Below are positions 609 to 30,100 of a stretch of DNA of 64,000 nt, one piece after another. The stretch lies in NCBI GenBank assembly GCA_043228905.1, contig JBHGNT010000021.1:7378001-7442000 (forward strand), read 5' to 3'. Every line of letters begins with the position of its first letter. The stretch's first letter is position 1. The position numbers were made by a program, and so were the translations under genes. The DNA is from Azolla caroliniana. Lineage: Eukaryota; Plantae; Polypodiophyta. The notes beneath the pieces are model-generated. The model ran no database searches, was not told the origin of the DNA, and saw nothing but the letters and a program-made list of their open reading frames with translations.

Positions 609-630
609 CCTCTGCTCTTCTGCCGCCTCT

Positions 631-648: not shown

Positions 649-652
649 AATA

Positions 653-2438: not shown

Positions 2439-2442
2439 GTAA

Positions 2443-2794: not shown

Positions 2795-3787
2795 AGAATG
2801 GGCAAAGACACCACCTGAACGGGCAAAGGCAAAGAGACTGTTGATTGCGCCAGTGGGGGAAGAACCGACAAGGGGAGAGACAGGAAGGAGAAAGGAGCCG
2901 AGTCGACAAAGGAAGTTGACACATCCAAACAAGTCGGAACAAGCGGCAACAAAGGCAGAGTCAAGAAGGACAGAGCCGACCGGAAGAAGAAGGCCAAGAC
3001 CCAGACATGGTCCGATGTGATGAAGGGCTTGGAACCAGAAGACAAATCGGGAGCAACCGATTCAGACAAGAGCTGGAACGAATCAGAGACAACTGATTCG
3101 GTTCTACGGAAGGATTCGGAAGAACCGGATCAATTCAAGGCCAAGAGGACAAGAAGGCAGCAAAAGTAGACGCCAACACGAAGGAATCGGTAGGTCGACA
3201 AGCGCCGAAATCATGGCAGCGAGGGAACTGAATTGGGCTTGTTGAGCAGACAAGCCGACCAAGAAGGTTGAGATGCGCAGAAACAGAAGGGTCGTAGCAA
3301 ACAGGACCGGACCGGACGAGGAGCACGAGCGAGGTGGAGTGATGCCAGAAGGAGCCAGGTGGAAGGATCGGCTGCCATAGAGACTAACACTATGATCCGA
3401 CCTCAAATTGAACTTGAGGGGGAGTGTTGAAGTGGCAAGCTCAACCGGATCCGGATCGACATCCAGAAGGGTGAGCCAGTGAGCTGGGGAGCCGGTTAGC
3501 TAGATTAAGCAATAACCGGAAGCCAAGTAACAGCTAGTCTACTAGGGAGTTAATATCTTGTAGTTAGTGTTAGACACTCGTGTGAGCATTGCAGTACACC
3601 GTACTTCTGTCAGTCTGGATGGACTTGTATAAAAGTGTTCACTGAACACATACGATGTATAGACTGAGTAGTATTTTTTGATTTAAGTTTCTGTGTGCTC
3701 TCTCTCTGTCTCTCATGTGTACTGTTAAGCTCTCCATTAAACCTGTTTTCTGTTTTCTATTGCTTCTGCACACTATTTTGTTCTACA
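2795..3787 (+). mobile_element. Ty1/copia 3' end: acidic tail region, PPT and 3' LTR (3425-3787)
   Basis: Similar to the reverse complement of 23530-23900 and 30965-31300; AACTTGAGGGGGAG then TGTTGA...TTCTACA. Confidence 0.8.
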
Positions 3788-6700: not shown

Positions 6701-7028
6701 GAGCGGGTGCTCGGTTCCCAGTACAACAACACTTCGTTCTCCCTAAACGCGCGATCCCCCTCTTAGCCCTCTCTCCTGACCTTTATAGGTCCCCGAGGGA
6801 GGATCCATCACATCCTGTAATTACATCCTCTTTATTCTTTGTCGCTTCGGACAGAGATTCATTTCGATTTGTTAATCTATTTGATGTGTCTATATCAAAG
6901 TCTGTCCACAACACGTCGACCTATTCTTAGACTATGTACAAATAATTTACAACTACGTGCATCCGTGTATGCTATGGTTCAGGTGCTCAGGTTTTCGTTT
7001 CCGCTCGTAGCCGGTTTTCCTCACGACC
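3788..7028 (-). mobile_element. Decayed Trp-primed gypsy element: gag-protease remnant, PBS (6381-6398), 5' LTR (6404-~7028)
   Basis: ORF 3783-4736 has protease ALIDHGSEINLM and aligns with deletions to ORF 52757-54865; degenerate Trp PBS. Confidence 0.85.
4718..6091 (-). repeat. Solo LTR (1374 bp) with an internal ~274-bp tandem duplication (5133-~5660)
   Basis: TGTCGTGAAGAT...ATCTTCATGACA termini; TSD CCGG/CTGG; host gag resumes on both sides. Confidence 0.85.
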
Positions 7029-7668
7029 ACGGCCCCTGGTCCGGGCCGACTAACTTGGGCCACCGTCGAGAAGCTAAAGGGAAGGTATTGGTGGCTTGGA
7101 ATGTATATCGATGTGCATCATTTCGTAACGACGTGGGAGAGTTGCCAGATGCATTCCGAAATCCGGCACCGCGATGAACTGCACCCGACCTACCCGCCAA
7201 CCATACACTTCAAGTGAATGGTCAACTTGGTAATGATGGCGATGGGGGTAGGGAAAATGCGATATCTGGCACTTGCACGGGAGGATCTAACGAACCAGGT
7301 GGAGGGCCGAGCGTTGAAGGATAAGACTACTACGACTGTGTGTCACTTCCTCGTTGAGGAAGTGGTTTGCCGGTATGGGTGCATAAGCCAAATTGTGGTC
7401 GATCGAGGAGAGGTGGATGCACAAGAAGCCGAAGAGCTGTTCGAACGGTTAGGGGTGAAGCTTTCTCTCTCTATAGTGTACAATCCAGAAGCCAACGGGA
7501 AGGCAGAGCGCGGGCACGGGCCGATTGTGAAGGTGCTAGTACGAGCGTGCGGGGGACGAGTCAGAAATTGGCCGTGGCTTCTGCCTTTTGCTTTATGGGC
7601 GGACCAAACTACGCATGGTTCGATAACCAGGTACTTGCCGACGGAGCTTATGTTTGGGCAGAAGCCGG
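7029..7668 (+). pseudogene. Gypsy integrase core fragment
   Basis: AREDLTNQVEGRAL...YGC...DRGE...YNPEANGKAERGH, as in ORF 49266-50906; stops upstream. Confidence 0.9.
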
Positions 7669-9912
7669 TGTCCTGGGAAATTCCAGCTACAAGGGAAAAA
7701 GTAACGGAATGCGCATGAACGAGCGGGGGTGTGTGCGTGGATGCGCTCAAATATGGCTTTATGTATAAACACATGTAAATAACATAGGACTAGTAAGCGT
7801 TAGGAACTAGGATTCAATAGGTACTTAAATGTTTGCACGAATAGAGTGGAATGTGGGAGTTTGAAGCGAGGAGATCGAGGGAAATCTCTCTCCAAAGCGG
7901 TGGTTTAACTACTTGATGTAACAACCCTCTCTCTCCTTGGTCTATAAAAGGAGGGAGAGAGGACTGAGGAGGGATCCACATTTGAGGAGGACAAAGTGTT
8001 GTCGGTTTAGGGATCGAGCTCTATGTCTCTCTCTCATTTTCTGTTTGGTGCACGATTTGGTTGGAAGCCTCTGATCGCATAGGAAGCCCGTGTGCTCTTG
8101 ACAGAGGCTCCCCGTTGTGTCTCGGTGTCTCCACCCGTCTGTGCGTCTGTGTGTCTTTTGTGTGACTAGCCCTTGCTTTGACTCCGGTCGAGCCGGTTGT
8201 ATATTGTTATTCTCGTAATCTATAATATTCATTTGCTATCCTGTTTCGGTCCCCCCTCGTCTTCTTCTCCTCCTCCTTCTTCCTTCACTCCTTGGTCTAA
8301 GGCCCCCGCGTCCCGCCTTAGCCGTTGCACGTATACGCGTATAACCGTGACATATTTGGTGAACCCGACGTGAAACAGGCGGTAGAGGAGTCCAAAGATG
8401 AGAGCGGTAGCAGTTGATCGCTTAGTGAACGGTCGAGAGGGCATGGTGCCCTTGATAGGGCCATCGAGGTAATCGTCAGCATGATAGGCCGATTCGTAGA
8501 AAAGGACGCGACAAACTATCTCAGGCCAAGAGGATAATGAGGGACATCCTGGAGGACAGACGGCTGTCGGGATTCCCTCGGTTGCTGACACCGAGCATGC
8601 ATACGAAGGTGGTTGAGGTACAAGCTGGTTGCCGGAACTAGGAGGAGTTCGGAGAACGATTCCTCGAGAGGTACGGGATTGACGACTTGCTTTGGTTGTT
8701 GAAACGAGAGTTCATGGAGTGGGTCGACAGCCCCGGACAAGGGGTGAACACGTCGGTGCTCCTCCAGGTTGATACGAGCGGCATCCTACTTTTCATCAAG
8801 TCGGTGGATGCACTTGATTGAGAGAAGGTGGTTCTCCTACTGGATACGGACGAAGGACTCACTCACGGCCGATTGGGCCGTGGTAAAAAGGGTTTGTACC
8901 CGTTTTGACAAATGGTGAGAATGGAATGATCGAGAGTCGTAGACGACCGGCGCGGGAACCGGGAGGAAGTTAGAGGAGCCGATTCCGGTGTGGACGGAAG
9001 AGACTCGAAGGTGGCTCGAGTTGGGCACGGTCCCAACTAATGCGGTCAAAGGCCCGTCCGGGGGCGCAACTCTAGAAGAGCTGACGAAGATGGTACACGA
9101 TCTCTAGATCGCACAGGCCCGGAGGGATAGCGGGGGAAAATCGCGGGACGAAGGCCTCCGGCTGACCAACGATGTATGTGGTGTGACGCGGTCAATCACA
9201 TTTGAAGAGAGTGCGTCGACTTTGCCGAGGCACTCAGAAGTAACGTAGTGTACCTATGGAATGGGCGGGTGCACGCATGCGAGACCCGAAAACCACTAGA
9301 ATTGAATACCAGTCGAGGCGGAATGATGCGGTTATTGGAAGAAGCCACGACGCGACATGCTGAGGCTCTCCACTACTCAGTGTCGGCTGGCATCCAGGTT
9401 GGAGGTGATGGCGGTGGAAAGGTGAAGGATTTCGGGTTCTGGCCGTTGGTGTTGGAATGCCTTTCCGGCGTAAGGCTGAGGACGGAGGAAGCAGACCGCG
9501 CGGAAAGGCGGGTATGAGAGGTCACTGGATGGGATGATCCGGTCGAAGAGACGATTGGTTTCGTAGAGGCCTCGTGCCAGAACTACAAGGTTCTGGTGGA
9601 GGATAAGCGAGCGGGGAAGGGTAGAGGAACCGGAGCCGAAACCGACAACCGGTACGAGATGTGGGGCACTCCGAAGAAGAACGACGCCGGGGTTTCCGGC
9701 TCGCAGGAAAGGTTGAAGCCGGTAGGTTATCGGTTGGGTTCGGAAACAGAAAGGGCGATGGACTTGCGGAAAGTCCTTGAAGAGAGAATCCTCGACGACA
9801 GGGTAGAGTTGTCTCTAAGAGAAGTGCTAGGAATCGCCAAGGAGGAGTTCCATGACATGGACTTGGTGAAGCGTAAGAGGCTCGCGACGAAGCCGGAGCC
9901 GGAGAGGCCCGT
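7669..9912 (+). mobile_element. Truncated Trp-primed gypsy element: 5' LTR 7669-8352, PBS 8357-8374, decayed gag
   Basis: TGTC...TGACA LTR preceded by CCGG; TGGTGAACCCGACGTGAA; frameshifted gag (YLWNGRVHA, LSLREVLGIAK). Confidence 0.85.
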
Positions 9913-10751
9913 TGTCGCGGTAGTCCGCGCACGCGTGTTAGATCCAGGGCGGAACCACATGGGTCTTGGACCAGAGAGAGACGGAGTATGGAAGTTCGAG
10001 CTTCACTGTTTCCCATGACCGGCCAGGACACCAACCAGAGCATTTCCGGATACGTACCAAGAGCAACCGAGAGGAAAAAGGACGGTGCACGCAACACTGA
10101 CTAGACTCACGCATCCTATGTATAGAAACCAGAAAGAAGGAACTCCAAAGACACCAACACAGACACAAATGCACAGAACTTCACTAATATATATATATAT
10201 ATATGGGTCGAAGCACGCTACGGTGTACCAGAGAAGTACTGTTTTTGGCCACAAAAATTGTCAGTACTTTCAATAGTGTTAGTACTGAATAATTCAGAAA
10301 AAAAATTAGAGAAAAAGAAAATCGATTTTGGAGAGTGGGGTGACTGTAGTACAAGTGTCATTTACTGTAGAAGGAGTGGGGGGAACATGTGAGGAGATGT
10401 TCTTCCATTTTGGGGGCTATTTTCCCCTCACGTCGATTTTGGCGCTTCCCCTCACATCGTTTTGGCGATTCCCCTCATACTGTTCTTCCTCTATCCCTCT
10501 GAGCTTTTCATCACAGACATCCATGTCACGTTTCTGATTTTCCTTCAATCTAAATCTCAGACATCCATGTCTGGTTGGAGAGTTTGAGTTGAGGATTTCT
10601 GATTTTTTTAGGGTTTCTGTTTTTGTTAGGTTTCGATTGAGGTACAGAGACTGTTCTGAGGGTTTAGGTAGCAGCCAATAGTCACTTCTTCGACAACGAC
10701 TTTCGTACTTCCACCGATTGCAGTTGATGTCGTGGTGATTTGGGGCTTTTT

Positions 10752-11405
10752 CCACCAAATCGAGGCGGCATTGGAGGTTCCTTCCACCAAATTGAGGCTC
10801 CTTCCACCAAATCGAGGCGGCATATCCAACGCTCCCTCCACCATTGGAGGTTCCTTCCACCAAATCGAGGCGGCATATCCAACGCTCCCTCCACCATTGG
10901 AGGTTCCTTCCACCAAATCGAGGCTGCATATCCACGCTCCCTCCACCATTGGAGGTTCCTTCCACCAAATCGAGGCGGCATATCCAACGCTCCCTCCACC
11001 ATTGGAGGTTCCTTCCATCCATTTTTTTATTTTCAGTACTAAAATGTTTCATTTCTTCATATTTCAGTACTAAATTTTTAGAATTGACATTTGCCATATT
11101 TGATATGTAATTCTAATGTTTGAAACAAAATATTTCTCACTTTGCAGGCCACATTTAAAAACATTTGATTGTGTTTTCTTGGTTGAGTCTATATATCCAC
11201 GCTCCCTCCACCATTGGAGGTTCCTTCCATCCATTTTTTTATTTTCAGTACTAAAATGTTTCATTTCTTCATATTTCAGTACTAAATTTTTAGAATTGAC
11301 ATTTGTCATATTTGATATGTAATTCTAATGTTTGAAACAAAATATTTCTCACTTTGCAGGCCACATTTAAAAACATTTGATTGTGTTTTCTTGGTTGAGT
11401 CTATA
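10752..11405. repeat. 53-bp tandem array (about 4-5 units) followed by a ~212-bp direct duplication upstream of the transposase
   Basis: Unit CCACCAAATCGAGGCGGCATATCCAACGCTCCCTCCACCATTGGAGGTTCCTT at 10804, 10857 and onward; 10981-11192 repeated at 11194-11405. Confidence 0.95.
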
Positions 11406-11461
11406 TAACATTAACTACTTTCGCAAGACACTTAATTTTTGTGGATAAATCTAGTGACCGA

Positions 11462-14400
11462 ATGGGGGTTCCTAACGAGAGTGAGTTGTCAAGTAACTCA
11501 TGCATATCTGAAAGGACTAAGAGACGGTGGTTCTTCACATAGTCCGTTATTTGGTAGAAATAACGAAGAGATTTAGTGAAGAGGATCGTAGGGATATTAT
11601 CTGTAGAGTGTTACACCATCAAAGTTTGAATGAAGACATGGAGAGAATAAAATTTCGGGACCAATGTGTTTCAGAAGAGATTGTGGAGTCTATGAAGTCA
11701 TCCCTAGACTTAGTGAAAGGTGTAGAGAGCTTAGACAAACTTGCTGCAAAGAGGGCAGCCCTACACATGGTTGTGAACGGTGCGAGAGAAAAAAAATATA
11801 GTGATACTAAAGTTGCCTTAGCCCTGGGTATTCAAAGAAGGAACTTGAGGAAACATCGCCGAAATATACACTCAAGCAAATTCAAGTGGCTGGGGTCGGG
11901 ACGTAGACGACGATGTGATGCCTTATCTCAAGAGATTATTGAGAAAGTGGATTCATTTTGGGCCAAAAATACGCGTGTCTCACCAAATAAGAAGGACGTG
12001 TGTAGACAACGAATAAGTCAGGGTAAGTACCAGATTCACCCTAGACACTTCTTGGAGATGACAGAGGTATTCCATTTTTTTATATCAATTCACATTCCAT
12101 AACTTTGTGTTTTGACCAAGTGTATATTAATGTTTGCTATATATATTGGTTGATGTAGGCTGAATTGTACATGAACTTTAAAGACCAACATCCAAGCTTG
12201 ACTGTCAAATTCCGCAAGTTCCAAGGTTTGAAACCATTTTATGTTAGAAAATTAAATGAGAGGAATACATGTTGTTGTGTGTACCATGTGAAGATGGACA
12301 TGTTAAGGCTAGCAGTGAATGCAATGCGTACTGATTCTAAGGGTATACATGGGGAATTATGTGTCTGCACTTGTGAGATTTGTAGACCAAATGGGGAGGA
12401 TAATAGGTGTAATGCACGAAACATGACTTATGCATCCGTTTCTGAGCTATGGAGGTCTTGTGTTTGTGAAAAAGAACCATCATGTGAGTGGCATCGTCGT
12501 ACATGTCTATTAAGAACATGTAAGGTTTGTCCGCTACCATTATTTTGTAGGCAAGAGCTTGATATGGGAAATAGTCATATCGTGAAATGGAAATATTTGG
12601 AGTATGTGACTGAAAATATTGGTAAGGGAGTTGTAACTAAGCGTATAAAGGAAGTATATAAGGAGACATGTGCTGCTACCCTTGTCTCAGAATTTAAGAA
12701 ACAACTTGGGGAGTTTATTCCACATAACTTCCAGAGTTATTGGCAAAATTCACAGTTCAAGGAATGTATTAATAACTTACCAACGGGTGTCATTGTATCC
12801 GTTATTGATTTTGCAGAAAACTATACATTTAAAGTTCAAAATGAGGTTCAATCAATGCATTGGTACAATGATCAATGTACAATACTTGTACATATTTGCT
12901 ATTGGAGGCAAGACGACGAGTTACATAAGAAATCAATATTTTACATTTCAGATGATAAAAAGCATGATACACTATTTGTTCAACATTGTTTTAAGCTTCA
13001 CCATGCATATTTATTTTCTCTAGGGTTAACCTTTAACCGTCATTGGGTTTGGTCTGATGGTGCTGCCTCGCAGTTTAAGGCGGCACGATCGTTCTACTTT
13101 ATCGCCAGGTAATTTTTAATCCATATGTTTAGTACTTATCATGCAATGTGTAAGGAAGTAATTCTTGTGTTAGTGGATGCATACTAATTATGTTTGTAAC
13201 TATTAACAAACAGTACTAGTCACATGGATGCATACTAATTATGTTTGTAACTATTCGAATCTTGCACTTGTGAATGGATGCATGCATACTAATTTTGTTT
13301 GTATTATGTTGTACTAAGTAACTTTTAATCCATGTGAAGTGTTCTCCATAGACACATTGTACTATGTTGTGTTTACAGAAGGATGTAAAGTACTCATCTT
13401 GTACTCATAGTATTGTCCGTCCTTAAGAGAATTGTACTAATGATCTTTTTATCCATGTGAAGTGTTCTCCATAGACACATTGTACTATGTTGTGTGTATA
13501 GAAGGATGTAAAGTACTCATCTTGTACTTAGAGTATTGTCCGTCCTTAAGAGAATTGTACTAATTATGTTTTAATCCATGTGAAGGGTTCTCCATATACA
13601 CATTGTACTATGTTGTGTGTTGGTTTTGTACTATGTTGTGTTTACAAAAGGATGTAAAGTACTCATCTTGTACTCATAGTATTGTCCGTCCTTAAGAGAA
13701 TTGTACTAAGTATCGATTAATCCATGTGAAGGGTTCTCCATAGACACATTGTACTATGTTGTGTGTTGGTTTTGTACTATGTTGTGTTTACAAAAGGATG
13801 TAAAGTACTCATCTTGTACTTATAGTATTGTCCGTCCTTAAGAGAATTGTACTAATTATGTTTTAATCCATGTGAAGGGTTCTCCATAGACACATTGTAC
13901 TATGTTGTGTGTTGCATCTGTACTATGTTGTGTTTACAGGAGGATGTAAAGTACTCATCTTGTACAAATAGTATTGTCCGTCCTTAAGAGAATTGTACTA
14001 AATCAGTATTTACTCATGTTGTACTCATAGTATTGTACTCATCTTGTACTCATCTTTTAAACACACAGTGTGGTACTGATTATCTATTAATCAATGTTCA
14101 GCGTATCTATACTAAATCAGTGTTTATTGGGGGATGTAAAGTACATGTCTTGTAGTACTAATGATCTTCTAAGGAGGGTTGTGTTCTCCGTGGACACATT
14201 GTATTGTACTATCCGATATTGAACATTTTGTACTATTTATCTGTTAATACATGTAGAGTGCTTTCCATGAACTCATTGTACTATACTTTGTGCTATATCC
14301 ATACTAAGTTAGTATTAAATGGATGCCAGGTACTGTTGGTCGACAACATAGTACTATTTATCTTTTAATAAGTGTAGAGTGTTCTCAATGGATACGTTGT

Positions 14401-15393
14401 GCTATGCTTTGTTTTGTATTTGTACTAAATCAGTATTAATGGAAGTGTAGTACTCTCAATTGACAACATAGTACTAATTTTGTTGGAAACCTGAGATACC
14501 AAAGCAGGTATTTCTCCTTATTCAATATTCGTATGCAATGGAATTACTTCGGGTCTGGACATGGAAAAGGAGAGCATGATGGCGCGGGGGCTGTGATCAA
14601 ACGTGCCCTTACAAGTGAGCAGTTGGATAATAATGGCGCTAAGTTACAAAATGCACATGATGTTGTGCAGTGGCTAACATGGAAGATGTCAAATGATGGT
14701 AAGAACAAATTGTTTGTTGAAGTTCGCGCTGATGAGGTTGATAGAACTAAATCATATGGTTGTAAAACCGTGAAAGGCACACGCAGCACCCATTGTGTGT
14801 TAGGGTTTAGCCGCAAGGACACAACCCAATTGTTACTCCGTAGTTTATCATGCTTTTGTTCCATGTGTCTAGATGAAGCTTGGGATAAATGCATCAACCT
14901 ATCAATCGTGGAGCCCTGGAAGCTGCAGAAGCTTGAGCCTGAACGACAAGATGATATTGAAGAGGATGTGCATTCAAACGATATTGTATACTACAACCAA
15001 AATCAAGACTTGGCAGTTTTATTGGAAGTTGGAGATCATTTTGCAGTGCTCAAATATTCTCAGAATGAAGATTTAGAAGACTACTACATTGTGGTGTGCA
15101 AGCAAGGAAAGACATTATTGAAAGAAGTGGTGAGGGATGGTTGGGGCAACAATTTCAACGTTGGTGAGTCTGTCGTGTATGGAAACTATTATGCAAAGTT
15201 GCCGCAGTGCAAGAACACATATGCATTACTAAAAGAAGCACCCATCGCAATAATCTACGCTGATGCCATTCTTGCGATCAAATTCAATATGACTCAAGCA
15301 AAGCAGAAGGTTAAGGGATACAACACTGTCTACAAGGTCCCCCAAGAGGTTCATGAGCACATATTAGGGGAGGTCTCTCTATTTAATGCTTGA
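11462..15393 (+). CDS. Three-exon DDD transposase, Sola2-like (exons ~11462-12066, 12159-13108, 14508-15393), about 810 aa; apparent 1-bp frameshift near 11529
   Basis: GT-AG introns join in frame (EMTE|AELYM, FIAR|YFSLFNIRMQW); motifs IDFAENY, QNEVQSMHW, SDDKKHD, WSDGAASQFK, FGSGHGKGEHDGAG; Cys-rich segments. Confidence 0.88.
13327..14001. repeat. Tandem array of ~123-146-bp units (5 copies) in transposase intron 2, degenerate beyond
   Basis: Recurrent ATCCATGTGAAG...GGATGTAAAGTACTCATCTTGTAC...CCTTAAGAGAATTGTACTAA. Confidence 0.95.
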
Positions 15394-15538
15394 AAGTCAC
15401 CCTATCAATACATTGTACCAGAAAACTGAAAAACATCCACTTGGAGTTCACTATTAATTTTGATGATTGACAAATGAATTGATATATTTCGTCTTTCTTC
15501 CAAAGGGTTTATGCCTCTCAACCACTTGTACTTATCTT

Positions 15539-18500
15539 TCATAATATATTAGCTGTTGTCAACAGGACTTGGATTTCTTCATTGCCGATATTGCTCATGT
15601 TTCTTGATGTTATTTGAGCATAGGAGTTTTGCAGAGTTGGTGTGTCCTCTGTTGGCACATAAATCTGCTCTAGTTTTGCTACCAAGAGAAGATTGTTAGT
15701 TGAATTCATTAAAGACTTTAATATTGTAAGATTTTCTACTGTAAGTTCATTTTTCAAAGGGGGCGATGAATTCTGTGAAGACAGCAATGAAAATTATTCT
15801 CTCAGAATCCTTTTTTGTTTCATGATATGTCCTGTGAAGCCATCTGAGTTTTTACTTCTTGTATATAAGTCCTGAATATCCAGGCTATGGATTTTAAAGT
15901 ACAGACCTTCCTTTCCTTAACAAAATAATCCAACTTCTGAAACAATAATTTGTGATAGCTCAAAAAGGTAAGTGTTTCCTTACTACTGTTAGTGGATGAT
16001 TCATCCTTTGGGATGATATCATCAAAATATGGCCCACATTGCTTCAACAATTTGCACACATTCTGGTTACCCTCCAAATGGGATTGATGAAATAGTCTAT
16101 ACTTCAGTATATCTTCAATAACACCCGATATTTTTTGTTTCTCATCATCAACACCTAAAAACCTAAATTTTCCTAGCAAGGTAAGAAGACTTTCAAGCAT
16201 TTTATCTACAATAGACTGAAAGACTTTGCGAGGATTAGGAGATGATCTCAGAAAAGAAACAAAACGTTGTAAAATAAGAATACTTAGATCAAAAAGTATA
16301 TTCCCATTGTTTTTGATATATGTTGATGAGCAAAATATAGAAGCAATCCTTAAACATGAACTTGATTTCACACTGGTATAACTATTTCAGATTCATGAAC
16401 TGGATTTTTTACATTGGCAATTGAAACAGTATTTTGGTATCCAAATAGTTCAATTTCAGACATCACTAACAACTAAAGTTCAAGTACAATCGAAAGACAA
16501 TCAGGCACTAGACGGTAACTTGGCCGATCTTGTAATGCGCTTGTTGTTGGTGCCAGATTTTTCTGATTTTACATTCTTCTTTATCTTAAAGCCTTTAGGT
16601 ATGAGCTGACTAAGTGGCACTTCATCATCAGAGGCCTCAGAGACAGGCGTGGATGCGCGAGCACCTTGTACTGGTGGCAAGCTTGAGAGAGCAACTATGT
16701 TTTCTGCAATTGCAATGCTTGTACACAAATCCACAAAGGTGCTGTCGATAGACAAATTATCACTCATCTCCTGAATGCTTGTACTCCTAGCGATCTTTAT
16801 TGCCCTATCATCATCACCGATGCCTATACACTCGTTCTTATTAGACTCCTGTATGTGGCCCGTGGCAGTAGTCATGGTCAACTCCTCTTGTACGGTGGAT
16901 GTCACCTCATTCTTAAGACAATGTTGTTCGCTCTGAGTACAATCAGGCCCACCTTCATTAGTAACGTTGTTCGCTCTACACTCCTCATGGGATTCTGTAC
17001 AATCAGGCTTATCTTCAGGGAAAGCGATGTTCTTTCCACGATCCTCATGGGCTTCACAAGACACTACTAGCACATTCTCAGTACAATCAAGCTCCTCTTC
17101 ATTACTAGCAATGTTCTTTCCATGATCCTCATGGGAATCTTTAGATAGTACTAGCACATTATCAGTACAATCAGTCTTCTCTTCAGTACTTGCCATATTC
17201 TTCACAAGACACTACTAGCACATTCTCAGTACAATCAAGCTCCTCTTCATTACTAGCAATGTTCTTTCCATGATCCTCATGGGAATCTTTAGATAGTACT
17301 AGCACATTATCAGTACAATCAGTCTTCTCTTCAGTACTTGCCATATTCTTTCCACACTCTTCATGGGCTTCAATCTTCTCTTCAGTACTTGCCATATTCT
17401 TTCCACACTCATAGGCTTCTTTAGACATAGTGTTGTTTGTACATGCCAGCTGCTCTTCACATATGAATGCTTCGTTTTTCTCACAATCCTCATGTGTGGA
17501 AGATGTGCTTCCAGAGTCTGCCTCCTTGCAAAGGTTAATTTGATTCTGACTCTGATGGGAATCTGATTCTGCACTTGTGCTCCATGAAGTTCCCGATTCA
17601 TTTGATTGCAGTTGGGAATCAGACTGCTCTTGTAAACCTAATTAATGGGATTCCAAAGAATATTGGTATGAACTCACATACTCAAAAGTTTGCAAACAAT
17701 GAACATAGGGTTTAGGGCCACATTTTTACCTAATGTTACATTGTCATACTGTACAGCCGTAGATACCCCATTGCAAGTGGTGGGCTCGGTCATCTTCTCC
17801 ACAACATCTAGGTGCTCAACAGTGTTGTTATGATCTATAATAACAACAAAAATAGGGTTGTTATGAGCTAAATCATTGTTTTCAAAGTCTGGCTTTTGAC
17901 GTGTACCTGGGAGTGTTATAAATTCGTCTTCATGATTAGGTTTTGGACTCGTATCTCCGTCACCAAATATCATTTCATCATCAGCTAGTAACACAAGTAC
18001 ATGGTATTAGACAATGGATTAGGTTGACAATGCTCCAGACAGGTGAGAACTTATATGACTCACCATTGCATTCAACTTTGCCTTTCTTGCCGTTTCCATA
18101 CAACATTCTTGCAACATTTCTCTTCTTACTGGGCTCTATTTGTAAAGAAACTGCATTTCTCTTCTTAGTGGGCTCTATTTCTTGATGTTGACCGGAGCTT
18201 GGGGAATTTGTTTGTAGAAGCATATGTTCCACTGCTCCAATGGCCCTTCTCATACATTCATCCTCATCATAAAAATCATAGGTTATTGGTAATGATGGTC
18301 CTGAACCTTGGAATGTGCAGCAGATATTGAGGGTTTAGGCACAGGGGCTGGTTGTTCCATTACCTTCCCTGGTGTGGAGTTGCTTGACACTACAACATTC
18401 ATTGCAAGAAACAAAAAAACCTTAAATGTTAGTACCATCATCTAAAATATATAATGTAGGTCACAAGAGCTACTTCCCATTTTACACAATGTACCAATCA

Positions 18501-21193
18501 TGAACAATGTACTACTCACATAGTTCCTAAATTACTGAACTAGTACTAATAAGGAACACTGTACTGCTCACTTAGTTCCCAATTTACACGATTAGTACTA
18601 ATCATGCACAATATACACAAGTAGTACTAATCATGCACAATATACACAAGTAGTACTAATCATGCACAATATACTACTCACTTAGTTACCAAATTACACA
18701 AGTACTAATCCCGAAAAATGTACCACTGACTTAGTCAAATTTAATAAGTAGTACTAATCTTGAACAATGTACTACTCACTTATTTCCTAAATCACTGAAC
18801 TAGTACTAATCCCGAACAATGTACTGCTCACTTAGTTCCCAATTTACACAAGTAGTACTAATCATGCACAATATACTACTCACTTAGTTACCAAATTACA
18901 CAAGGAGTACTAATCCCGAACAATGTAATGCTCACTTAGTTCCCAATTTACACAAGTAGTACTAATCATGCACAATATACTACTCACTTAGTTACCAAAT
19001 TACACAAGGAGTACTAATCCCGAACAATGTACCACTGACTTAGTCAAATTACACAATTAGTACTAATCCTGAACAATGTACTACTCAACAATGTACCACT
19101 GACTTAGTCAAATTACACAATTAGTACTAATCCTACAAAATGTACTACTCACTTATTTTCTAGATTACTGATCTAGTACTAATAAGGTACAAAACTAGTA
19201 CTAATAAGGAACAAAGTACTACTCAGTTCCCAAATTACAAAACTAGTATTAATCATGAGCAATGTACTAGTAACTTAGTTCACAAAGTACAGAACTAGTA
19301 CTAATCATAAACCATGTAGTACTTACTAAGTACTAATCCAACAAATGTAGATTGGTATTTTGCACACAAGTAATACTAAACATGATATGTCTTCTACACA
19401 CCTAGTTACATAACTTGTACTAATTACACCAACAGTATTAATCTTGAACAGTATTAGTACTAAACGTGATATGTGTTTGACACACCTCATTTCCAAATTA
19501 CAATAATTGTACTATTATTCAGCAATTTACTATACACCTTGTTCCCAAATTACATTACTAGTACTAATTCCCAAGTTACACAAACAATACTAACAGTCAA
19601 CAGTGTACTATAAGTATAGTGTTTACTAAACTAATACTAGGCAAGTTGCAATATAGATTGGACGATGTTGTACCTGGTTCCCTTTTAGTACTACTAATTC
19701 TGGAAAATATCCCTTCAACTACACATACCAATTATATATTAAGAGTACTGCCAATACTAACCCACATAATTAGGGTTCCACATAATAGTTGTTAGAGATT
19801 ACACTAAATTTGAAGTATGAATTGTGGCATACACTAGTTCTAGTCCAAATGTTAATTGACATCATATAATACAAACAATAGAATAGTAGAGCCACATACC
19901 GTACGGGTGTACTTTTAAACCCCAAGCATAGTACCACTCAGCCGCAATTGTAGTTTTACAGTCCATACATGTATTCTCTTTCTCAAAATGATACTTAGCA
20001 CATAGCACATGATATGTGTGCAAGCATGGTGTAATCACAACATCCATAGCCTCCAGCTTGAATCCGAGGCCACAAAATATACACCTGGAAGATTGCAAAC
20101 ACAAGTTATAATATATTAGCTGCTCACTTATTTATACCAAAGAAGTAGAAATAAATAACTTTTAAAGCCAATACCGTGATATAGCTATACTAATAATGGT
20201 ACTTTCTATACCACTTGGGTGCTCAATTACAGATGGACACAAAGTATCAAAACCATTTTGTTTTAAATCCTGCATCAAGCATGCAAGGTTCTCAGAATGC
20301 AACTTTAAGGCTGACAACTTATTATCTATTTCTTCATGTACATTCCTGCAAGTATCAAGGTCTCTCATATGTGAACCTAATTGAGTGCCCAAATTGTTTA
20401 GCTCTTTCTTCAACTCCTCTTTCAACACCTCACTTTCTGAATTTTGGATTGTCGATGCAATCCATTCATATGTAGTTTTTATTGAAGAAAATTTCTTTTC
20501 TGCCTGTATCTCAGCTGATTTAACTGCTTCCAAATTAGCAAGTAGTGTTTGTATTCTTGAGCTCATAGAAGCTATGCAACCGGCCATCATCTGTTCATGC
20601 TTTTCAGTCATTGTGGCCCGTACCTTTGCCTCTAGAACTTGGTGGACAGGTGTTATAGCTAGAATATCCACATGAGAGGTTCCAGATGACTTCAAGCTAG
20701 TGTTGGTACTAGAGGACCCTTTGTAATGTTCTGACCGGTGCCGATTAAAATCTTCCCAATTTACGTCAATGCCACCTTGAACTTCACATGCAAAAGCACG
20801 TGCAAAAACAGTACCCACCTCATTGTTAGTGATTTGATTTGTATCATAAACATGTTCGTATCTCGTCTTCAATAAATTCATGTATTCCCTCTTCAAACCA
20901 CTTATGTGGAATCCTCGCCTTGTGTCGGGATGTGCTGACCCCCAGGTTTTTAACAACCACTCTCTCAGCTCTGGATACACGTCAGGTCGTGCTCGAAGGA
21001 AATAATTCCATCCAAGAGGTGTGTCTCGACTGATGGAGTGGTACATCTTCTTTCTCTGTGTTGATGAATTCATCACCCTTTCTCTTGTGGGTGTCTTCTT
21101 GCTTTCTTTCATGGGTGTCGTTCTTCCTTCCTTCACTGGTGTCTTCACTTTCTCTTTCATCAATGTCTTCTTTATGGGTGTCCTTCTCGTCAT
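15539..21193 (-). CDS. Multi-exon cargo gene of the DNA transposon: basic/Thr-Pro N-terminus, coiled coil, RING-H2 finger, acidic repeat region, possible C-terminal helical exons; probably frameshifted
   Basis: Exon 21193-20175 splices in frame (GT 20174...AG 20085) to exon 20084-19900, CIFC-x15-CLHTYHVLC-x10-CMDC; further same-strand ORFs 17981-18253, 17674-17994, 17183-17428, 16501-17205, 15820-16371, 15539-15787. The 3' exon linkage is inferred. Confidence 0.7.
16950..17420 (-). repeat. Coding tandem repeats (GKNMASTEEK / DCTENVLV units); one imperfect duplication shifts the frame near 17200
   Basis: Repeated peptides in ORFs 16501-17205 and 17183-17428. Confidence 0.85.
18480..19570. repeat. 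~52-bp AGTACT-containing tandem array in a cargo-gene intron
   Basis: AGTACTAATC recurring at 18854, 18906, 18958, 19010 and others. Confidence 0.9.
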
Positions 21194-22196
21194 TGTCCTA
21201 GTCAACACAATTCTCAGGGAATGAATATGCATGTACTAGAAGAAAACTCAAGCAATTACCATCAACACATAGCAAATCATCACATTGCATGTACAAACCA
21301 TGTCAAACACACAATAACCCTAAATAGTCAGAAAAAAACTCATCCATGTCAAACACACAGACAATAAAAACAGACGGATAGGAAAGTCAAAGAAAACGAA
21401 AACATTGTAAATCATCATAGCCAACTCCATCACATCGCATGTACAAGCCATGTCAAACACACAAAAACCCAAAATAGTCGGAAAAACACTCATCCATGTC
21501 AAACTCACACAAAATAAAACAGATGGACAGGAAACAAGAACAAAACGAAAACATAGCAACTCATCATAGCCAACTCCATTTACGTGGCATGTACAAACAT
21601 GTCTAACACACAACCACCTCGATCAAAATATTGTCATACATTTTTAAAAGAAACACAGAGAAACACAGAGAAAACAAAAACATACCAGTTGGGCATGCAA
21701 CACATAGACTATGAATAATCAAACCCTAAAAATGACCATACACATGCAAATAAAAAACAGACAGACAGGAAACATTCAGAAAAAGAAAACATAACAGTTG
21801 GGCATGCAACACAGAGAATACCTGGAGGTCGTACAACTTGCAGAGGTACCACACCGTGTTGATTTCGACAAACGAGGCTGCTGCAGAGGAGACAAATGAG
21901 CATAGACAGAGGAAACAAACGAGCATACACAAGGAAGGAAAATCAACAACACATACAACGAGCAGGGGAAACAAAAATCTCTGTGTTCAGAGATCGAACC
22001 TGGCACAGAGGGGAACACAAGAACAGCTATGCGGGGAAACAGAGAATCGAAGGTGGAGTGAGAGAGAGAAACAGAAAGAAAGAAAGAAACAGAGCTTTGA
22101 AGGTGGAGTGAGAGAGAGAAAGAGAGAGATAGACCTGTAATAGATATGTCGTCTTTCTTTAACTTTCTGTCACTGTCTGTCTGACAACTTCGAGAC

Positions 22197-22244
<48 letters not shown>

Positions 22245-25200
22245 GTGAGTGAGAGAGGGAGAGAGATACTGAGACTGACCAACTATCACAATGGATACCT
22301 TCTCCAGGTGTGCTTTCGTACAACTCTACCTAGGAGACTGGGGCAACAATTAATGTATTAAATATGGCCTAGGGACATTTCGAGTGTGACGTACAATATC
22401 TTTGTGCATTCGAGTGTGACGTAATGAATTTGTTTTTTGTTTTTTGAAACTTATTTACAATTTTTAATGTTTATTTTCTTCTTCGATTTAGTACTAAATT
22501 TTTGGCCAAAAGTTGGTACACCGTAGCATGCTTCGACCCATATATATATAAGAACAAGATACAACTCTGGCCTTGAACCGGACCAAGGTCGGTTAGGTTA
22601 CAACAACAGTCTGCTGCCAAGTCGCCGATCGGGGAACTCTCGGGCTTGTCGCGTCGAGCGGGGTCTTGCACAGGAGACAAAGTAGCAGCGAAAACCCCTT
22701 TGGACATATAAGCTCTTTACCGGACTAAACCCTAAACAAACACGATGAAGAAGACCTCAAAGAAACTCTAAAAGTAAGAAGAAGAAAGCTACCAAACTCT
22801 AGATCTAAGTGGTATACCCTCCTAACTTAAAATGGGCAACCCCTCTACAAGGGACCCTCCCTTCCTTTTATAGCCCAAGGAGGGAGGGACGGTACAATGT
22901 GGGATAAATTCCTTATTACATGGGATTCTTTGTCCCAACTTAACTCCTATTCGGTGCCGTAAAGGCACCCCATTATCTTACATGGATATACAAGGGTGAG
23001 TGCTCACGCCGCACCCTCTCGGTATTCCCAATCGACACGGTTTTCTCACTATGGCCGTGAATCTTCACGACATCCGCCCCCACCAAACCGCACGTCCACT
23101 GGTACATGGCAAATCTAAAGAAGGTGAAAAAGATTATGTGTGGAAGCAATAGAAAACCGAATACAGAAAATACGCAGGTTTAATGGAGAGCTTGAATATA
23201 CACAGTATGCGGGAGAGACAGAGAGAGAGAACACACAGAAACTCAATTCAAAATAATAGTCAATTTGTACATACACCGTGCTCAGTGAACACCTTTTATA
23301 CAAGCCTTGACAATAGGGCGGACACAAGTATTGACAGTACTTGACCACTCATAAATGAGCCTACTACACTAACTCCCAAAATTATTCCTTACGAGGAATA
23401 TCTTCCCAACGGCCTCGTAGTTTACGCATTGATACGGCCATGTTTTGCGTACCGATTTATGCACCCAGTCTACGCATTGGGTTACGCATCGTATTACGCA
23501 CGAATGTTGAACTTGTCTCTCAACACTCCCCCTCAAGCTCAACTTGAGGTTCCGCTTGCTCCGCCGGATCTACGTTCTGGCTTCTCCTGGCTCCACGCCT
23601 CGCTCGCATTCCTCGACCCGTTCGGTTCCACGCACCTCGACCCTTTCGGTCGACTTGTCTGCTCACACGGCCTTTCTCAGCTTCCTTGTTGTTGCAGTGT
23701 TGGCACCTCTTCTGCTGCCTTCTCTTCCGCTTGGCCCTTGGTGGATTCTACGTATCCGAATCAAACATCCGAACCGACTTGGTTTCCTTCAATTGGTTTA
23801 CGCTCTCGTCCGAGTTGGCTGTCTCCAACTCATCTTCGGACTTCTCGCCTTTGATGGCTTCATCTCCCCCATGCTTGGTTGGCTTCGGCTCTTTCTTTCG
23901 ACTACTCCCCTTATGTCCGCTTTCGGACTCTTCCGCGGATCCGCCCTCGGCTTCTTCAACCAATCCAAAATCAAATTCATCATCCGACTCGGCGTCACGG
24001 TCTTTTCCGCTCCTTTCTTGCTCCCTTCCGTGGTCATCATGGACGTCTCTCCCCCTCAAGTTCGGCATGTCGAGGTAACGCAACCCAAGCACACCCGAGA
24101 ATTGCCGCAACTTGTCTAGACCAAGAGGCTTGGTGAAGATGTTGATGTTCTGCTGATCCGTCGGAACATACTGAAGTTCGACTTCAGTGGAGAGGACACA
24201 CTCACGGACAAAATGGTAGTGCACCTCAATGTGCTTAGTCCGGGCATGGAAGACGGGGTTCTTAGCTAGTTGGATGTTGCATAGGTTGTCACAGTAGATT
24301 GTCGTTGGATTGGATACCGCCACCTGCAGATCCTTAAGTAGCCGCTTCAACCATATGGCTTCGCATGTCGTGACAGCCGCTCCTCTATACTCGGCTTTGG
24401 TGCTCGACAACGCAACTGTCGGCTGCTTCTTGCTACTCCACGCGATCGCGGCACTCCCAAGAGAGAACGCAAAACCGGACGTGGATCGGCGATCGCCGGC
24501 GTTTCCGGCCCAATCAACATCGGTGTAACTGACCAACTGCGCGGCAGTATCGGTTCAATATAGTAGCCCCTGGTCCTCAGTGCCACTGATGTACCAGAGT
24601 ACGCGTTGTGCGCACTGAAGGTGCTGCTCAGTCGATCGCGCCATGAACTAACTAATCACCCTGATCGGGTAGCTGAGATTTGGTTGGGTGATGGTCAAGT
24701 ATATAAGTCTTCCGACTATCTGTCAGAACCTCGTCGGGTCGCATACCTTTCCGGAATCAGGGCGAAGCTTGACGGTTCTATCCAGAGGAGTCGAGATGGA
24801 CTTACAGTCGGCCATCTCGAATTTGAAGAGCATACTTAGTACGTAATGCCGTTGGCTGATCAATATGCCTTTGGGGGTGCGGATCACTTCGATCCCGAGG
24901 AAGTAATGAAGGTCCCCCAGATCCTTCATGTCGAATGATGCCGCAAGCTGGAGCTTCATGCGGTCAATCTCACCTAGGTCGGCTCCGGTGATGACCAGGT
25001 CATCAATATAAAGTAAGATGCTAACCGGCCCGAGTCGACCTTTCTGGATGAACAGTGAGGAGTCCGATTTTAATGTCGCAAAGCCCAACCGACGCAATCG
25101 TTGCGTGATCTTTGCGTTCCAGGCACGCGGGGCTTGCTTTGGTTTGTAAAGGGACTTCTTCAATCGGCACACCGCCAAAGTGTTCATTCCGGAGTGAAAC

Positions 25201-27111
25201 CCGGGGGGCTGTACCATGTACACCTGTTCCTCAAGCTCACCTTGCAGGAACACATTCTTTAAATCCATCTGATGTAAGTGCCACCCCTTTGCCGCAGCTA
25301 CCGTGAGCAAAACACGGACGATCGTCATCTTCACGACCGGCGCAAACGTCTCATCGTAGTCGATGCCGTGTTTCTGCGCGTAGCCTTTCGCTACTTACCG
25401 GGCCTTGTATCGGTTGACTGAGCCGTTAGTGTTGTACTTGACCTTGTACACCCACCTACATCCGATCGGATTCACACCTTTCAGTGCGTCAACCAGGTCC
25501 TAGGTTTCATTCTCCGCTAATGCGTGCATCTCTTCCTCCATTGTGGCACGCCAATTCGCGTCCTTTGCCGCTTCTGCGTAGCTCTCTGGCTCATGCACTT
25601 CCGCCACACACATTATGTACGCATAGTGATGTGCCATGTACTCGTTGTAACCGAACCGCACAACAGGGTTCTTCTGGCTGGTAGATCGGCGTAATTGCTC
25701 ATTAGGCGATGTTGAGGCTATCTTAGCCGACGAGGACTTCGCTCTTGAAGACCCGTCATCACTTCCCTCGGAGTTGGACTCGCATCGATCCGACTCGTGC
25801 CTATCCGTGCTATAATCCAACACCTTCTTCTTCCCTTTTTCCTTGCGCATAAGCCGTCTCCTCGGCTTCTTGCGCGGGGAATGCACGGCCGAGTCTCCAC
25901 TACTTGCCAGCTCTTCATCGGACTGGTCGAACCAACTCAGTCGTCCATCCGGTCTGCTTAACCGAAACGAAATCGAACTCTCTTCAGGCTCATCCGGAGG
26001 CATCTCGACCTCGCTGACCTCATCATCAGAACTCGGATTAGAGGTGAGGTCCAGAGTCGGAGGCAAGTACCAGGACGCGAACTCGTCAAACACAACGTTG
26101 CGGCTCACGCGCGCTTGTTTGGTGCGAGGGTTATAACACTTATAACCCTTCTGCTTATCCGAATAGCCGACCAAGATACACTTCTCAGCTTTTGCATCCA
26201 ACTTCCTCCGTTTCTCCTTTGGCACATGCACATATGCAATGCTACCAAAAACTCTCAAGTGTCGCAGATTCGGCTTCCTTCCGAAATACAGCTCATGTGC
26301 CGACACTTTTTCTCCGATCCGATTCTGGATGTATACCGCGGTTCGTACCGCCTCGGCCCAATAGAACTTGGGCAAGTTCTTCTCCTCCAGTATTTCCCGT
26401 GCTACTTCTACAATTGACCGGTTCTTCCTCTCGGCCACGCCATTTTGCTCTGGCGTGTATCTACAACTGAATTCGTGCCGAATTCCCATCTGTTGTAGAT
26501 AGTTGTTGAATTGACCGGAAGCACTTGATCCTTCGTCTTGTTTTCCGTTTCCACGAACCCTTTGAGGTCCTGAAAACAGTCGAAGACTGCACTCTTCTTC
26601 TCAATGAGGTAGATCCACGTGTGCCGCGTATAGTCGTCAATGAAGGAGACAAAATATTGACTCCCGCCAAGACTAACGTTCTGTGTCGGCCCCCATACAT
26701 TGAAATGTATCAAGTCGAGCTTGTTCCAGCTCCGGTTATGCTCGTTGGGAAACGGAAGTCGGTGTTTCTTCCCTAGCTGGCAAGCTTCACAAATTTGTGC
26801 CGTCCGGCCACTAAATTTGGGCAATCCGAACACCACCTATTTCAATTGCAGGTCCTGAAGCCGTTGATAGTTGACGTGGCCTATTTGCTTGTGCCATAAG
26901 TCTATATCTGACTTCACTTTTTGTCCTTTCGCGAACATTGCGGTGCCACCGTCACTAGAGTCGAGGATAAACATCCTCCCATCTTTGCGCCCTTGCGCAA
27001 TAACTCGGCCTTCTTCCTCGATGAAGCACCCAAGATGCGTGAACCAGACTTGCATCCCCTGGTTGACGATCTGCCCGACCGACAACAGATTCTTCGTGAT
27101 TGTCGGGACGT

Positions 27112-30100
27112 TGTCGCGTTGTTACGCGCGTGCGTGGAGAATGAGGCAGGACCACGGGGGCCTCAGACCGAGAAATAACCGAATGAGAAGAGGGGAAGGA
27201 GACTACCGATGTACTTCACACGCGCACAGACACACAGATTCACAGGAATTGCAACTAACTCTGAACAATGGAGACAGAACGAATGTATATGTATATATAT
27301 AGATCAAGGAGTTACAACTGGCAAGCTGGCGAGTGATAGGCTCCGATGCCTACACACACATACACACACACACACACACACAAAACGCGAGATGGAGACT
27401 CTGTTGGAAGCACTTGGGCATTCCGCGGAGCAAAGTCAGCCTCCCGAAAACCTGCACAGAACGACTATGGGGACTATAGAGGAGAAGAGCTCGGTTCTAG
27501 TCCGGCAGCACTTCGTCCTCCACAAAACGCGATTTCCCCCCCCCCCCCCCCCCCCTTTTACAATACCTCTCCCACTCTTTTATAGCCCAAGGAGGGAAGC
27601 CGTTATCACCCGTTACATCATATTCATTCCTTGTCCTTTTGGACAGGGATACGCCTCGATTTTCTCCCTAATGAATGCGTGCTACCTAGGATTTCACCTC
27701 AGCCGACTTGTACCTATCTACGTACTATACAACAAAACTTGTGCCCACGTGTAAGGGCCGGTTTACGCACGTTAAACCCGGTTTCCGCCTAGGGACGGTT
27801 TTCTCCACGACATCCGCCCCCACCTAACCGCGCATCCACCGGTATGTACCAAAATTAGACTCTTGCCGGAGAAGACCAGCCCACGCTTATCCTTCGTCTT
27901 CCAGATCGACACCCGTTCCAAGCCGGTCGTTGTCGTCATCCAGGTCGTTCGGGTTCGGTTCAGCCTCGTGCCGCTTTTTGAATGCTTTGATCCTTTTCCT
28001 TGCCACCGGTACCGCCATCCTGCTCTCGTCGGGCTCCGCGAGATGAAAGGTCCAATTGTCGTTTGCGCTTGTCACCACATAAGGCCCGAACCACCTTCTT
28101 GCAAACTTCCGCGTTGCCCTGTGCTGGTTGTCGAGGCTGCTGTCATACACTAGAACCCAGTCACCTTCCTCGATCTTCTTCGGTCTCAGTCGGTGAGTCC
28201 GGTCGAACCGTCCTTTGTTCTTTACCCTCGCCACCCGTAGCTTCTCCGCGGCTCGGTCCACGTCCTCCGGTCTTCGCTCCAGCTACTAAATCCGTGCCGC
28301 TAACAACTCCTCCTGGCTCATCTCGTCTTTCCAGTCCGCCGCGGCCCATGAGGAGATTGCCTGCTCCATTGGCATGATCGGCTTCTGACCGTACATTAGC
28401 TCTGTCGGCATGAACCCGGTTACCGAACTGTGCGTAGTTCGGTCTGCCCACAACGCATAGGGTAAGAGTTGTGGCTAGTTCCCGACTTGGCCTCCACACG
28501 CCTGTACTAACGCTTTGACGATCAGCCCGTGTCCGTGTTCCACCTTCCCGTTAGCCTCCGGATTGTACACTGTGGTGAGCAAGAGTTTAATCCCTAGCCG
28601 GTCAAACAACACTTCCGCCTCTTGCGCGTCCAATTCTCCGCGGTCGGCCACAATCTTACCTACGCAGCCGTACCGGCATACCACTTCTTCGATAAGAAAT
28701 CGGCACACGGCCGCGGTCGTTTTGTTCTGCAACGCTCGGCCTTCCACCTGGTTTGTTAGGTCCTCCTGAGCCAGCACCAGATACCGCATCTGCCCTACCC
28801 CCATCAGCATCGTCACCAGATCCACCATCCGAGGGTAGGTCGGGTGAAGCTCGTCCCGATGTCGGACTATGGAGTGCACTTGATAGCTTTCGCAAGTCGT
28901 CACGAACCGATGCACATCCCGATATAGTCCCGGCCACCGGTACTCCCCCTTTAGCTTCTCGAATGTGGTCCATGTCCTGCGGTGTCCGGCCCAGGGACTC
29001 TCGTGGTATGCCGTCAACAATTCTTCCTGTTCCTCTTTCCTCGCCACCACTCGGAGCGGGATGCCGTTTCTCTTCTTCGGGTGCTGCCATATGCTCCCGT
29101 CCCGAAGGAAGAATCGGTACGCTTTCTTCCGAATCCGGTTGGTCTCTCCCTTCGTCCATGCCGCGTCTGGTGTCATTGTCTTCAGTAACCCGCCGATCTG
29201 GAGCCACTCACCGTCATACTTGCTCTCGTCAAATTCGTTAAGCGCCGGAGTGCTCCCCTTTCTTGTTGTTATGTAAGCCGCCTCGAAGAAGTCCACGCCA
29301 ACTTCCTCGTCCTCCGAAACCATGCCGTCCTTGTCATCGAACCTTGCTCTCGAAAGCAGGTCGGCCATGGCATTGTCTTTTCCGGAAATGTGTCGTATTT
29401 CCGGATTCAGGGACTTGATGTACGCTATCCACCTGAGCATTGCCAGGTTCAGCGTCGCACATTCGGAAACCATGCCAAGAATCGGCAGGCAGTCCTTCTC
29501 GATTATCACCTCTGTCCCGATCAGGTAGTCTTTATCGGCCTTGACCGCCGAAACGATACCCCAGAGTTCGCGTTTAACCTGGGCGTATCCTCGTTGTCCC
29601 TCACTAAGGACTTTCACGCCGAACCAGATGGGGAACCTCGCACCATCGTCATCCTCTTGGTTGATCACCCATCCAATCCCGGTTGGACTCGTGTCCACGG
29701 TCACGTCAATCGGAGTGTCTTTGCCATAGACAACCTTTCGGAGCGTCGATGCCGCAGCAAGTGCTTCTTTCATCTTCCAGACCGACTCCGTATGCTCGTC
29801 TCTCCACTTGAATTTACGCCCTTTTTTCAGCAACCCATAGAGTGGCTCCGCGACGTGGGCGTAATGCGAGATCCAGATATGGTAGAACGCACATGCCCCC
29901 AGGATCCTTCGGACCTCCGTAACTGACCCGCAATCATCCTTCATCGCGGAGATGGCTTCTACCTTCGCCGGGGACGGCTTCTGGCCGTAAGGCCCGCATA
30001 GGATCTCCGGCTGTCTGAAGGCTGATTTTTCTCCGGAGAAGGTGAGCCCCTCGCTCTTGAGTCTGTGTACTTGTCCTCCACCGGACATCCTTTGATCGGG

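Follow-up and report, generated by a model that had tools for sequence, protein, structure and literature searches.

The question raised by this locus was whether a gene with a RING-H2 domain, lying inside a DNA transposon of Azolla caroliniana, belongs to that transposon, and what its product might do there. The window, i.e. the whole stretch of 64,000 nucleotides that was analysed (assembly GCA_043228905.1, contig JBHGNT010000021.1, positions 7,378,001 to 7,442,000, forward strand), contains a Sola2-type DNA transposon at window positions 10205-22539. The element carries a transposase gene and the RING gene, here called the accessory gene. A sequence-only reading of the window had taken the latter for a dedicated second component of the element. 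This was borne out: each of the 26 copies examined of family A, to which the window copy belongs, has all five exons, and the gene adjoins the transposase gene in three lineages (families A, B and C). It is almost certainly a dedicated accessory gene of the transposon, the conserved two-gene Sola2 system is real, and the accessory gene is under purifying selection. The window element itself has frameshifts and belongs to a Sola2 family that was active recently.

Structure and conservation of the accessory gene

As had been read from the sequence, the accessory gene is a multi-exon gene that is convergent with the transposase gene and enclosed by terminal inverted repeats (TIRs), both of which were located (10205-10230 and 22514-22539). 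It lies on the minus strand between 21193 and its stop codon at 16501 and is split into five exons with GT-AG boundaries. The features of this part of the element are:

20175-21193, minus strand: accessory exon 1, with a basic TPxK N-terminus, an unclassified helical domain and a two-helix coiled coil
19900-20084, minus strand: accessory exon 2, C3H2C3 RING-H2 domain; the splice to exon 1 was seen in RNA of a homologue
18390-19899, minus strand: accessory intron 2, a 52-bp tandem array with 23 AGTACT, 16 of them TAGTACTA
18064-18389, minus strand: accessory exon 3, with predicted junctions; this copy lacks 1 bp at 18302
17682-17984, minus strand: accessory exon 4, junctions predicted; conservation between families is poor
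16501-17637, minus strand: accessory exon 5, acidic Ser/Thr/Cys-rich repeats, then a conserved DDEVPLSQLIPKGFKIKK...RITRS end
15539-16386, minus strand: outside the RING gene; captured, partly deleted exon fragment of a single-copy host gene

Junctions other than that between exon 1 and the RING exon were assigned by splice signals and frame conservation alone. The span originally given to the gene, 15539-21193, had to be divided: 16501-21193 is the gene, while 15539-16386 is a captured piece of a host gene. The nearest open reading frame (ORF) ends of the two genes had accordingly been placed too close together, at 146 bp; the true gene stop at 16501 and the stop of the transposase are 1,107 bp apart. 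The frameshifts suspected near 18310 and 17200 were both found. The first is a 1-bp deletion at 18302 that is not present in 10 of 10 other aligned copies, the second an exact 148-bp tandem duplication (17052-17347) resulting in a net gain of 109 nt near 17200. In the family consensus the spliced product has 953 amino acids and a single terminal stop.

The protein showed the predicted order of parts. Its N-terminus, described earlier as rich in Lys, Arg and Thr-Pro, is K/R-rich with four TPxK/R motifs. In the AlphaFold model this basic region is disordered and is followed by a helical domain (residues about 55-156) and two long helices (197-313), in line with the globular segment and long coiled coil that had been expected. 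Folded alone, the helical domain reached a predicted template modelling score of 0.72. The acidic repeats end in DDEVPLSQL and are followed by a basic patch, again as read earlier. A tail motif at window 16530-16640, acidic-x-x-L-S-x-L/F-I/L-P-x-G-F/I-K-M/I-K/R-K followed by R-I-T-R-S or T-R-S, is retained by families A and B and by Adiantum, and loosely by family C, and the remaining tail diverges; the motif is probably a short docking motif combined with a nuclear signal. Exon 1 yielded nothing significant in Pfam and only generic coiled coils in Foldseek. With the helical domain alone, Foldseek returned nothing at E <0.001 and the best VIA Z was 3.3, which shows neither a new nor a known fold; the ESM Atlas gave no usable match for this domain.

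Expression was followed in three polyadenylated-RNA runs from a related organism, about 12% of each run being read. At 80% likeness 116, 44 and 39 reads matched the accessory gene, all on the sense strand, the read strand having been calibrated with host-gene and transposase reads. At 90% likeness the reads were too few for junctions of the accessory gene. Seventeen plus six reads ceased to match at the RING acceptor and then ran into the end of exon 1 of a homologue (P0006), so that the junction between exon 1 and the RING exon is spliced in this homologue. No P0006-type copy at E 1e-78 or better was present among 150 of 441 candidates.

Among 806 candidates for the RING exon in the genome, the best 150 were given scores, and none of these was weaker than E 3e-35. 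A stop-free accessory frame was present in 17 of the 26 family-A copies (one of the 17 with a mutated donor and one with a GC donor); this count is biased by how copies were chosen, as 2 of 11 copies selected by TIR pairs were stop-free vs 15 of 15 from the top matches. Every length change in the 17 copies was in frame. Five young full-length copies were more than 99.5% alike, lay in five different 4-bp target-site duplications (TSDs) and had both genes intact, which indicates very recent transposition; the youngest subfamily is likely active. In this subfamily (L053, L055, L057, L059, L062) the left TIR reads GGGTAGAAG instead of GGGTCGAAG, yet the TSDs are perfect and the two genes are intact. 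Sister family B is older and gave 45 matches. Exon 1 and the RING exon were present in 20 of 20 fetched copies, and the transposase was visible in 10 of these 20 within the 10 kb taken. Of the 20 RING matches ranked lowest, 18 had a TIR, element-end DNA or transposase in the stretch; of the remaining two, one was a family-B copy that is broken and the other an isolated piece of the RING. Metagenome loci contained the RING exon in 7 of 12 cases, and the transposase was reached in 2 of 12.

Selection was estimated as the ratio of nonsynonymous to synonymous substitution rates (dN/dS, Nei-Gojobori) between the consensus sequences of families A and B. The RING exon had a dN/dS of 0.21 (0.07-0.46), below 1 as the sequence-only reading would have it, and exon 1 one of 0.36 (0.27-0.49). 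The coil had a value of 0.23 and the transposase one of 0.17; the first 66 codons of exon 3 gave 0.42 and the last 40 aligned codons of the tail 0.32. Raw contigs from metagenomes agreed, with 0.13-0.24 for the RING.

These results bear on the view that the gene is a neutrally decaying captured fragment of a host gene, i.e. cargo of a Pack-type transposable element (Pack-TE). The same element does hold such a captured fragment at 15539-16386, the window copy is frameshifted, and a full set of RING ligands remains in no more than 8 of 20 copies of family B and 8 of 20 old copies of family A. However, dN/dS between the families is well below 1 (0.21-0.36), the youngest copies are intact while decay of old copies is expected after insertion, and searches with three diverged homologues revealed no host donor among the best candidates, which were scored. 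Moreover, the same gene lies beside a 41%-identical transposase in the distant family C, which contradicts a fragment unique to this copy. Neutral cargo is therefore a very improbable explanation.

The ORF at 15539-16386 is ordinary captured (Pack-TE) cargo, with which the RING gene can be contrasted inside one and the same element. It was considered as a last exon or a third gene, and both were ruled out by its host donor and by broken frames among the copies. The loose end of an RNA read matched one place in the genome, and the donor locus, on another contig, has a 641-codon open frame 79-93% identical to window 15561-16364. This donor is a large single-copy gene (G000:C8:7030296-7040900) that is expressed in RNA of the related organism and has a weak Urb2/Npa2 match further downstream (E 9e-4, below cut-off). 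The frame of the fragment is broken in 8 of 8 young 'P' copies, and more of it is deleted in 7 'Y'-type copies. It was undetected in 20 of 20 family-B loci, and a protein search for longer homologues of the ORF found none. Captured copies of this kind could feed small RNAs against the donor host gene.

Family C was found by a search with a moss Sola2 transposase. Its transposase, on another branch than that of family A, is accompanied by GGG-CCC TIRs and by the same convergent accessory gene. The domain of family C aligned in a profile comparison at an hhalign E of 1.8e-5 over 43 columns; its RING is 45% identical and scored 115 vs a maximum of 77 in 2000 ligand-fixed shuffles. The accessory pieces were stop-free in 5 of 6 copies, and at least 150 copies of the domain exon were scored. 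Since family C has the accessory gene, the gene probably predates the split of these lineages. Searches for more Sola2 families with two other transposases recovered family C only. Past the stop of the RING gene, family C has an extra ORF (L075:7427-8602, minus strand, G000:C7) in which Pfam recognises a NIF/FCP1-like phosphatase domain (E 2.9e-7, above cut-off). This ORF was stop-free in 4 of 6 copies and not seen in A or B; it is probably inactive, because its DxDxT motif reads ELDKV.

A profile search of 1.84 billion proteins yielded 42 homologues of the accessory protein. Three are annotated in the fern Adiantum; judged from the protein sequences, one has the coil joined to the RING and two have the conserved tail motif. 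Another, P0037, is a single intronless ORF of 405 amino acids on a 1.9-kb contig, with domain, coil and RING all present and a more canonical RING-H2 in which Pro and Lys are found. It may point to the origin of the accessory family; in the ESM Atlas it met only generic RING clusters under 0.9. Related transposases are present in Ceratodon, Calypogeia and Klebsormidium.

The RING domain as a candidate ubiquitin ligase

The RING-H2 domain is a full C3H2C3 domain, as proposed earlier, with all eight ligands at RING spacing. Its Pfam match to zf-RING_2 (E 1.2e-5) reached 25.9 bits and lies just below the cut-off of 27.3. The eight zinc ligands were intact in 24 of the 26 family-A copies and were kept across families. 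The nearest solved RINGs were all ubiquitin ligases (E3s) or Polycomb RINGs, with weak E values of 0.003-0.07.

According to sections of PMC5654768, a helix Trp, a loop Pro and linchpin residues shape the face of a RING that meets the ubiquitin-conjugating enzyme (E2). It speaks against a ligase function that the central-helix Trp was missing in 7 of 7 aligned homologues (His in A/B), as was and the Pro after Cys7 in 6 of 7 (Met/Leu in A/B). The linchpin after the last Cys, a basic residue in canonical E3s, varies: it is Lys in families A and B and P0037 and Ser in family C and Adiantum. The absence of Trp and Pro is not decisive, because RNF4, an active E3, is likewise without Trp in its alignment. 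As the zinc ligands are kept but the Trp and Pro for E2 contact are missing, the chances that the accessory RING is an active E3 ligase appear about even.

If it is, the protein might act in trans and degrade a host silencing factor, the main idea of the sequence-only reading, without binding DNA; the palindrome arrays described below would then serve the transposase or something else. The conserved zinc ligands, the low dN/dS of the RING exon and the nature of the nearest solved RINGs are consistent with this. Its E2 face is non-canonical, however, and such an enzyme would leave unexplained why lineage-specific arrays are found in the same two introns. In addition, motifs resembling those for interaction with the small ubiquitin-like modifier (SUMO) showed no enrichment in six tails (P at least 0.33), and the idea of a SUMO-targeted ligase was dropped for this reason. 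A free-acting E3 is thus considered improbable.

Palindrome arrays and a possible anti-silencing role

The palindrome AGTACT occurs 47 times in the window element vs 4.7 times expected from shuffles. Thirty-four of the 47 copies are located in two introns, 4 at the ends (3 in the first 200 bp and 1 in the last 200 bp) and 5 in the stretch of exons 3-5; none occurs in the transposase exons or in accessory exons 1-2. Three family-B loci contained 23-34 copies. Family C has only 5 AGTACT and instead 189 copies of TAGCTA (10.2 expected), in the corresponding introns and at the ends. Each lineage is poor in the motif of the other. The four A/B intron arrays have no alignable stretch of more than 27 bp in common and all contain the motif; it is therefore the motif and not a repeat that persists. 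In both the A/B and the C motif, TAG and CTA form inverted halves, separated by 2 bp or 0 bp. Between the array core TAGTACTAA and the VANC21 motif YAGTATTAY there are two mismatches in nine positions; this likeness is probably a coincidence.

The copies show methylation-type decay: transitions amounted to 3.9% at CG and 5.1% at CHG (H being A, C or T) vs 0.36% at A/T. VANC targets are described in parts of PMC5735166 as short motifs in tandem repeats, located in introns and termini, and by analogy the motif layout found here is the layout of such targets. Because of this match, an anti-silencing role in which the protein docks on DNA is tentatively favoured; the intron arrays fit such a VANC-like protein better than an E3 that acts freely.

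Such a protein would bind the palindrome of its family through the basic N-terminal region and the helical domain and would oligomerise through the coiled coil. The RING, as a predicted ubiquitin ligase or adaptor, would then transfer ubiquitin, and host silencing on the element would be loosened. Judged from the sequences, it is slightly favoured that the accessory protein acts on the motif arrays. The whole chain from the DNA-docked protein through the RING to anti-silencing, which is argued by analogy, is put forward tentatively. It is doubtful that Sola2 elements of seed-free plants independently evolved a VANC-like eraser of silencing. In such an eraser the domain would read the lineage-specific palindrome array, and the RING would ubiquitinate, at that site, either the silencing chromatin or the proteins that read it; one protein would then make up a programmable system.

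Alternatively, the accessory protein could be a transposition cofactor like CACTA TnpA or MuDR MURB that binds element DNA and/or transposase and assists assembly of the transpososome or steers integration, the RING tuning transposase turnover. For such a cofactor speak the position of the gene next to the transposase in families A, B and C, the AGTACT copies within 200 bp of either element end, and mudrB, which is described in part of PMC6446971 as apparently needed for integration. Most motif copies (34 of 47) are intronic, however, and lie 2.5-4 kb from the ends. Furthermore, other Sola2 elements in the sections concerned of PMC3627910 carry Fanzor1, an unrelated second gene, so that Sola2 transposition in general needs no such protein. 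The cofactor is rated rather unlikely.

Several points also weigh against a DNA-docked, selected accessory protein. No Pfam family was found for the helical domain at E <0.07 with 10 domain homologues, and this search gave no sequence link to VANC or a known DNA-binding family. Tandem duplication inflates the motif counts, and the motif also occurs at the ends of the element and might be bound there by the transposase. There are only two motif-protein pairs (A/B and C), and the covariation thus lacks statistical support. Significance for a dN/dS below 1 was not reached with the linker, with the basic N-terminus in most pairs, or with the RING in comparison with the close contig L048 (0.53, 0.17-2.65). 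Finally, the RNA came from a relative, and the homologue is 59% identical to exon 1.

In other transposons, mudrB has a convergent orientation and TnpA binds a repeated motif of its element; we know of no RING in TnpA or MURB. In RAG1 and Chapaev the RING is part of the transposase polypeptide. These have a transposon-derived RING in common with the present element, in which it sits in a separate convergent gene. To our knowledge, VANC in Brassicaceae is the best-documented sequence-specific anti-silencing protein encoded by a transposon. If the proposed role is true, the present system would be a second one, in another superfamily and plant lineage, and would test how general the strategy is and if it can proceed through ubiquitin. 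Should the anti-silencing role not apply, Sola2 still gains a conserved accessory protein family. Among the assets of the system are very young intact copies, two natural pairs of motif and protein, a domain outside known classes and a RING that may be catalytic.

Second genes are known from other Sola elements, Fanzor1 in Sola2 (parts of PMC3627910) and a ParB-methyltransferase in Sola1 (parts of PMC12477816), and accessory genes are known in Mutator elements (parts of PMC6446971). With the Sola2-Fanzor1 elements of Dictyostelium and Polysphondylium, as far as sections of PMC3627910 describe them, the present element shares transposase motifs, short TIRs, a 4-bp TSD and room for a second gene. 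Here, however, this gene encodes domain, coil and RING-H2 instead of Fanzor, the introns contain motif arrays, and the TSDs are not AT-restricted. Sola1-1_Ec32 of Ectocarpus likewise has its accessory gene on the strand opposite the transposase; in the account given in parts of PMC12477816 it is a Sola1 element with a DNA-modifying enzyme, the ParB-methyltransferase, and not a RING protein. VANDAL/VANC of Arabidopsis, from excerpts of PMC5735166, shares with it a DNA transposon that has its own accessory gene, short motifs that differ by lineage and are tandemly repeated in introns and at the termini, and protein repeat regions that vary. The differences are that the present element is Sola2 and not Mutator and carries a RING, that no Pfam family connects the proteins (compared via Pfam only), and that binding and demethylation, proven for VANC in the same excerpts, are only proposed for the present system. 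CACTA TnpA and MuDR MURB (parts of PMC6446971 for MURB) are also second element-encoded proteins, in superfamilies other than Sola2. No Sola element carrying a gene for a RING or an anti-silencing protein turned up in a literature search, which had Repbase entries and subscription papers outside it.

Transposase, element ends and surroundings

The remaining features of the element are:

10205-10230, plus strand: left TIR with GGG terminus; ATAT target duplication just before
11462-12066, plus strand: transposase exon 1, start codon predicted; carries a 1-bp deletion at 11527 in this copy
12159-13108, plus strand: transposase exon 2, with the motifs DFAENY, QSMHW, SDDKKHD and SDGAASQFK, compared with a Sola2 alignment
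13109-14507, plus strand: transposase intron 2, 123/146-bp tandem repeats with 11 AGTACT
14508-15393, plus strand: transposase exon 3, with the motif HGKGEHDGAGAVIKR
22514-22539, minus strand: right TIR, followed by ATAT

The transposase has three predicted exons and 813 amino acids in intact copies; the intron at 12067-12158 was supported by 3 RNA reads from the related organism. Its frame in the window is broken by the deletion at 11527, which, like that at 18302, could be an assembly error. A Pfam search assigned no family to the transposase. The Sola2 motifs DF(A/S)EN, Q..HW, SD...H, SDG...Q.K and HGK..DG.G...KR were all found in exons 2-3, by comparison by eye with the alignment in Additional file 10, seen in part, of PMC3627910.

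The TIR pair is 26 bp long, inverted, with one mismatch. ATAT is duplicated on either flank, and the insertion site lies within a (TA)n run; the joined flanks are 73% alike another retroelement-like stretch of the window. The TIR pattern had 329 matches in the 523-Mb genome, and a reversed control had 0. Ten copies fetched by TIR pairs were colinear with the window and mostly 95-99% identical outside the repeat arrays. The original description of Sola reportedly gives a 5'-GRG terminus, and the ends of families A and C, GGG...CCC, match this. A perfect 4-bp TSD was found in 9 of 10 TIR-pair copies, 5 of 5 young full-length copies and 5 of 6 family-C copies; a TSD of 4 bp is a feature of Sola2 (parts of PMC3627910). 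Tandem arrays (53-bp, 212-bp and 150-bp units) lie upstream of both genes at 10750-11407 and 21278-21613, the 53-bp and 150-bp units being without AGTACT. The element is surrounded (window 1-10200 and 22540-30200) by nested remnants of long terminal repeat retroelements, with a Copia-like remnant at about 23700-27100 and Gypsy-like integrase/RNase H at about 28400-30200 and 7000-7700.

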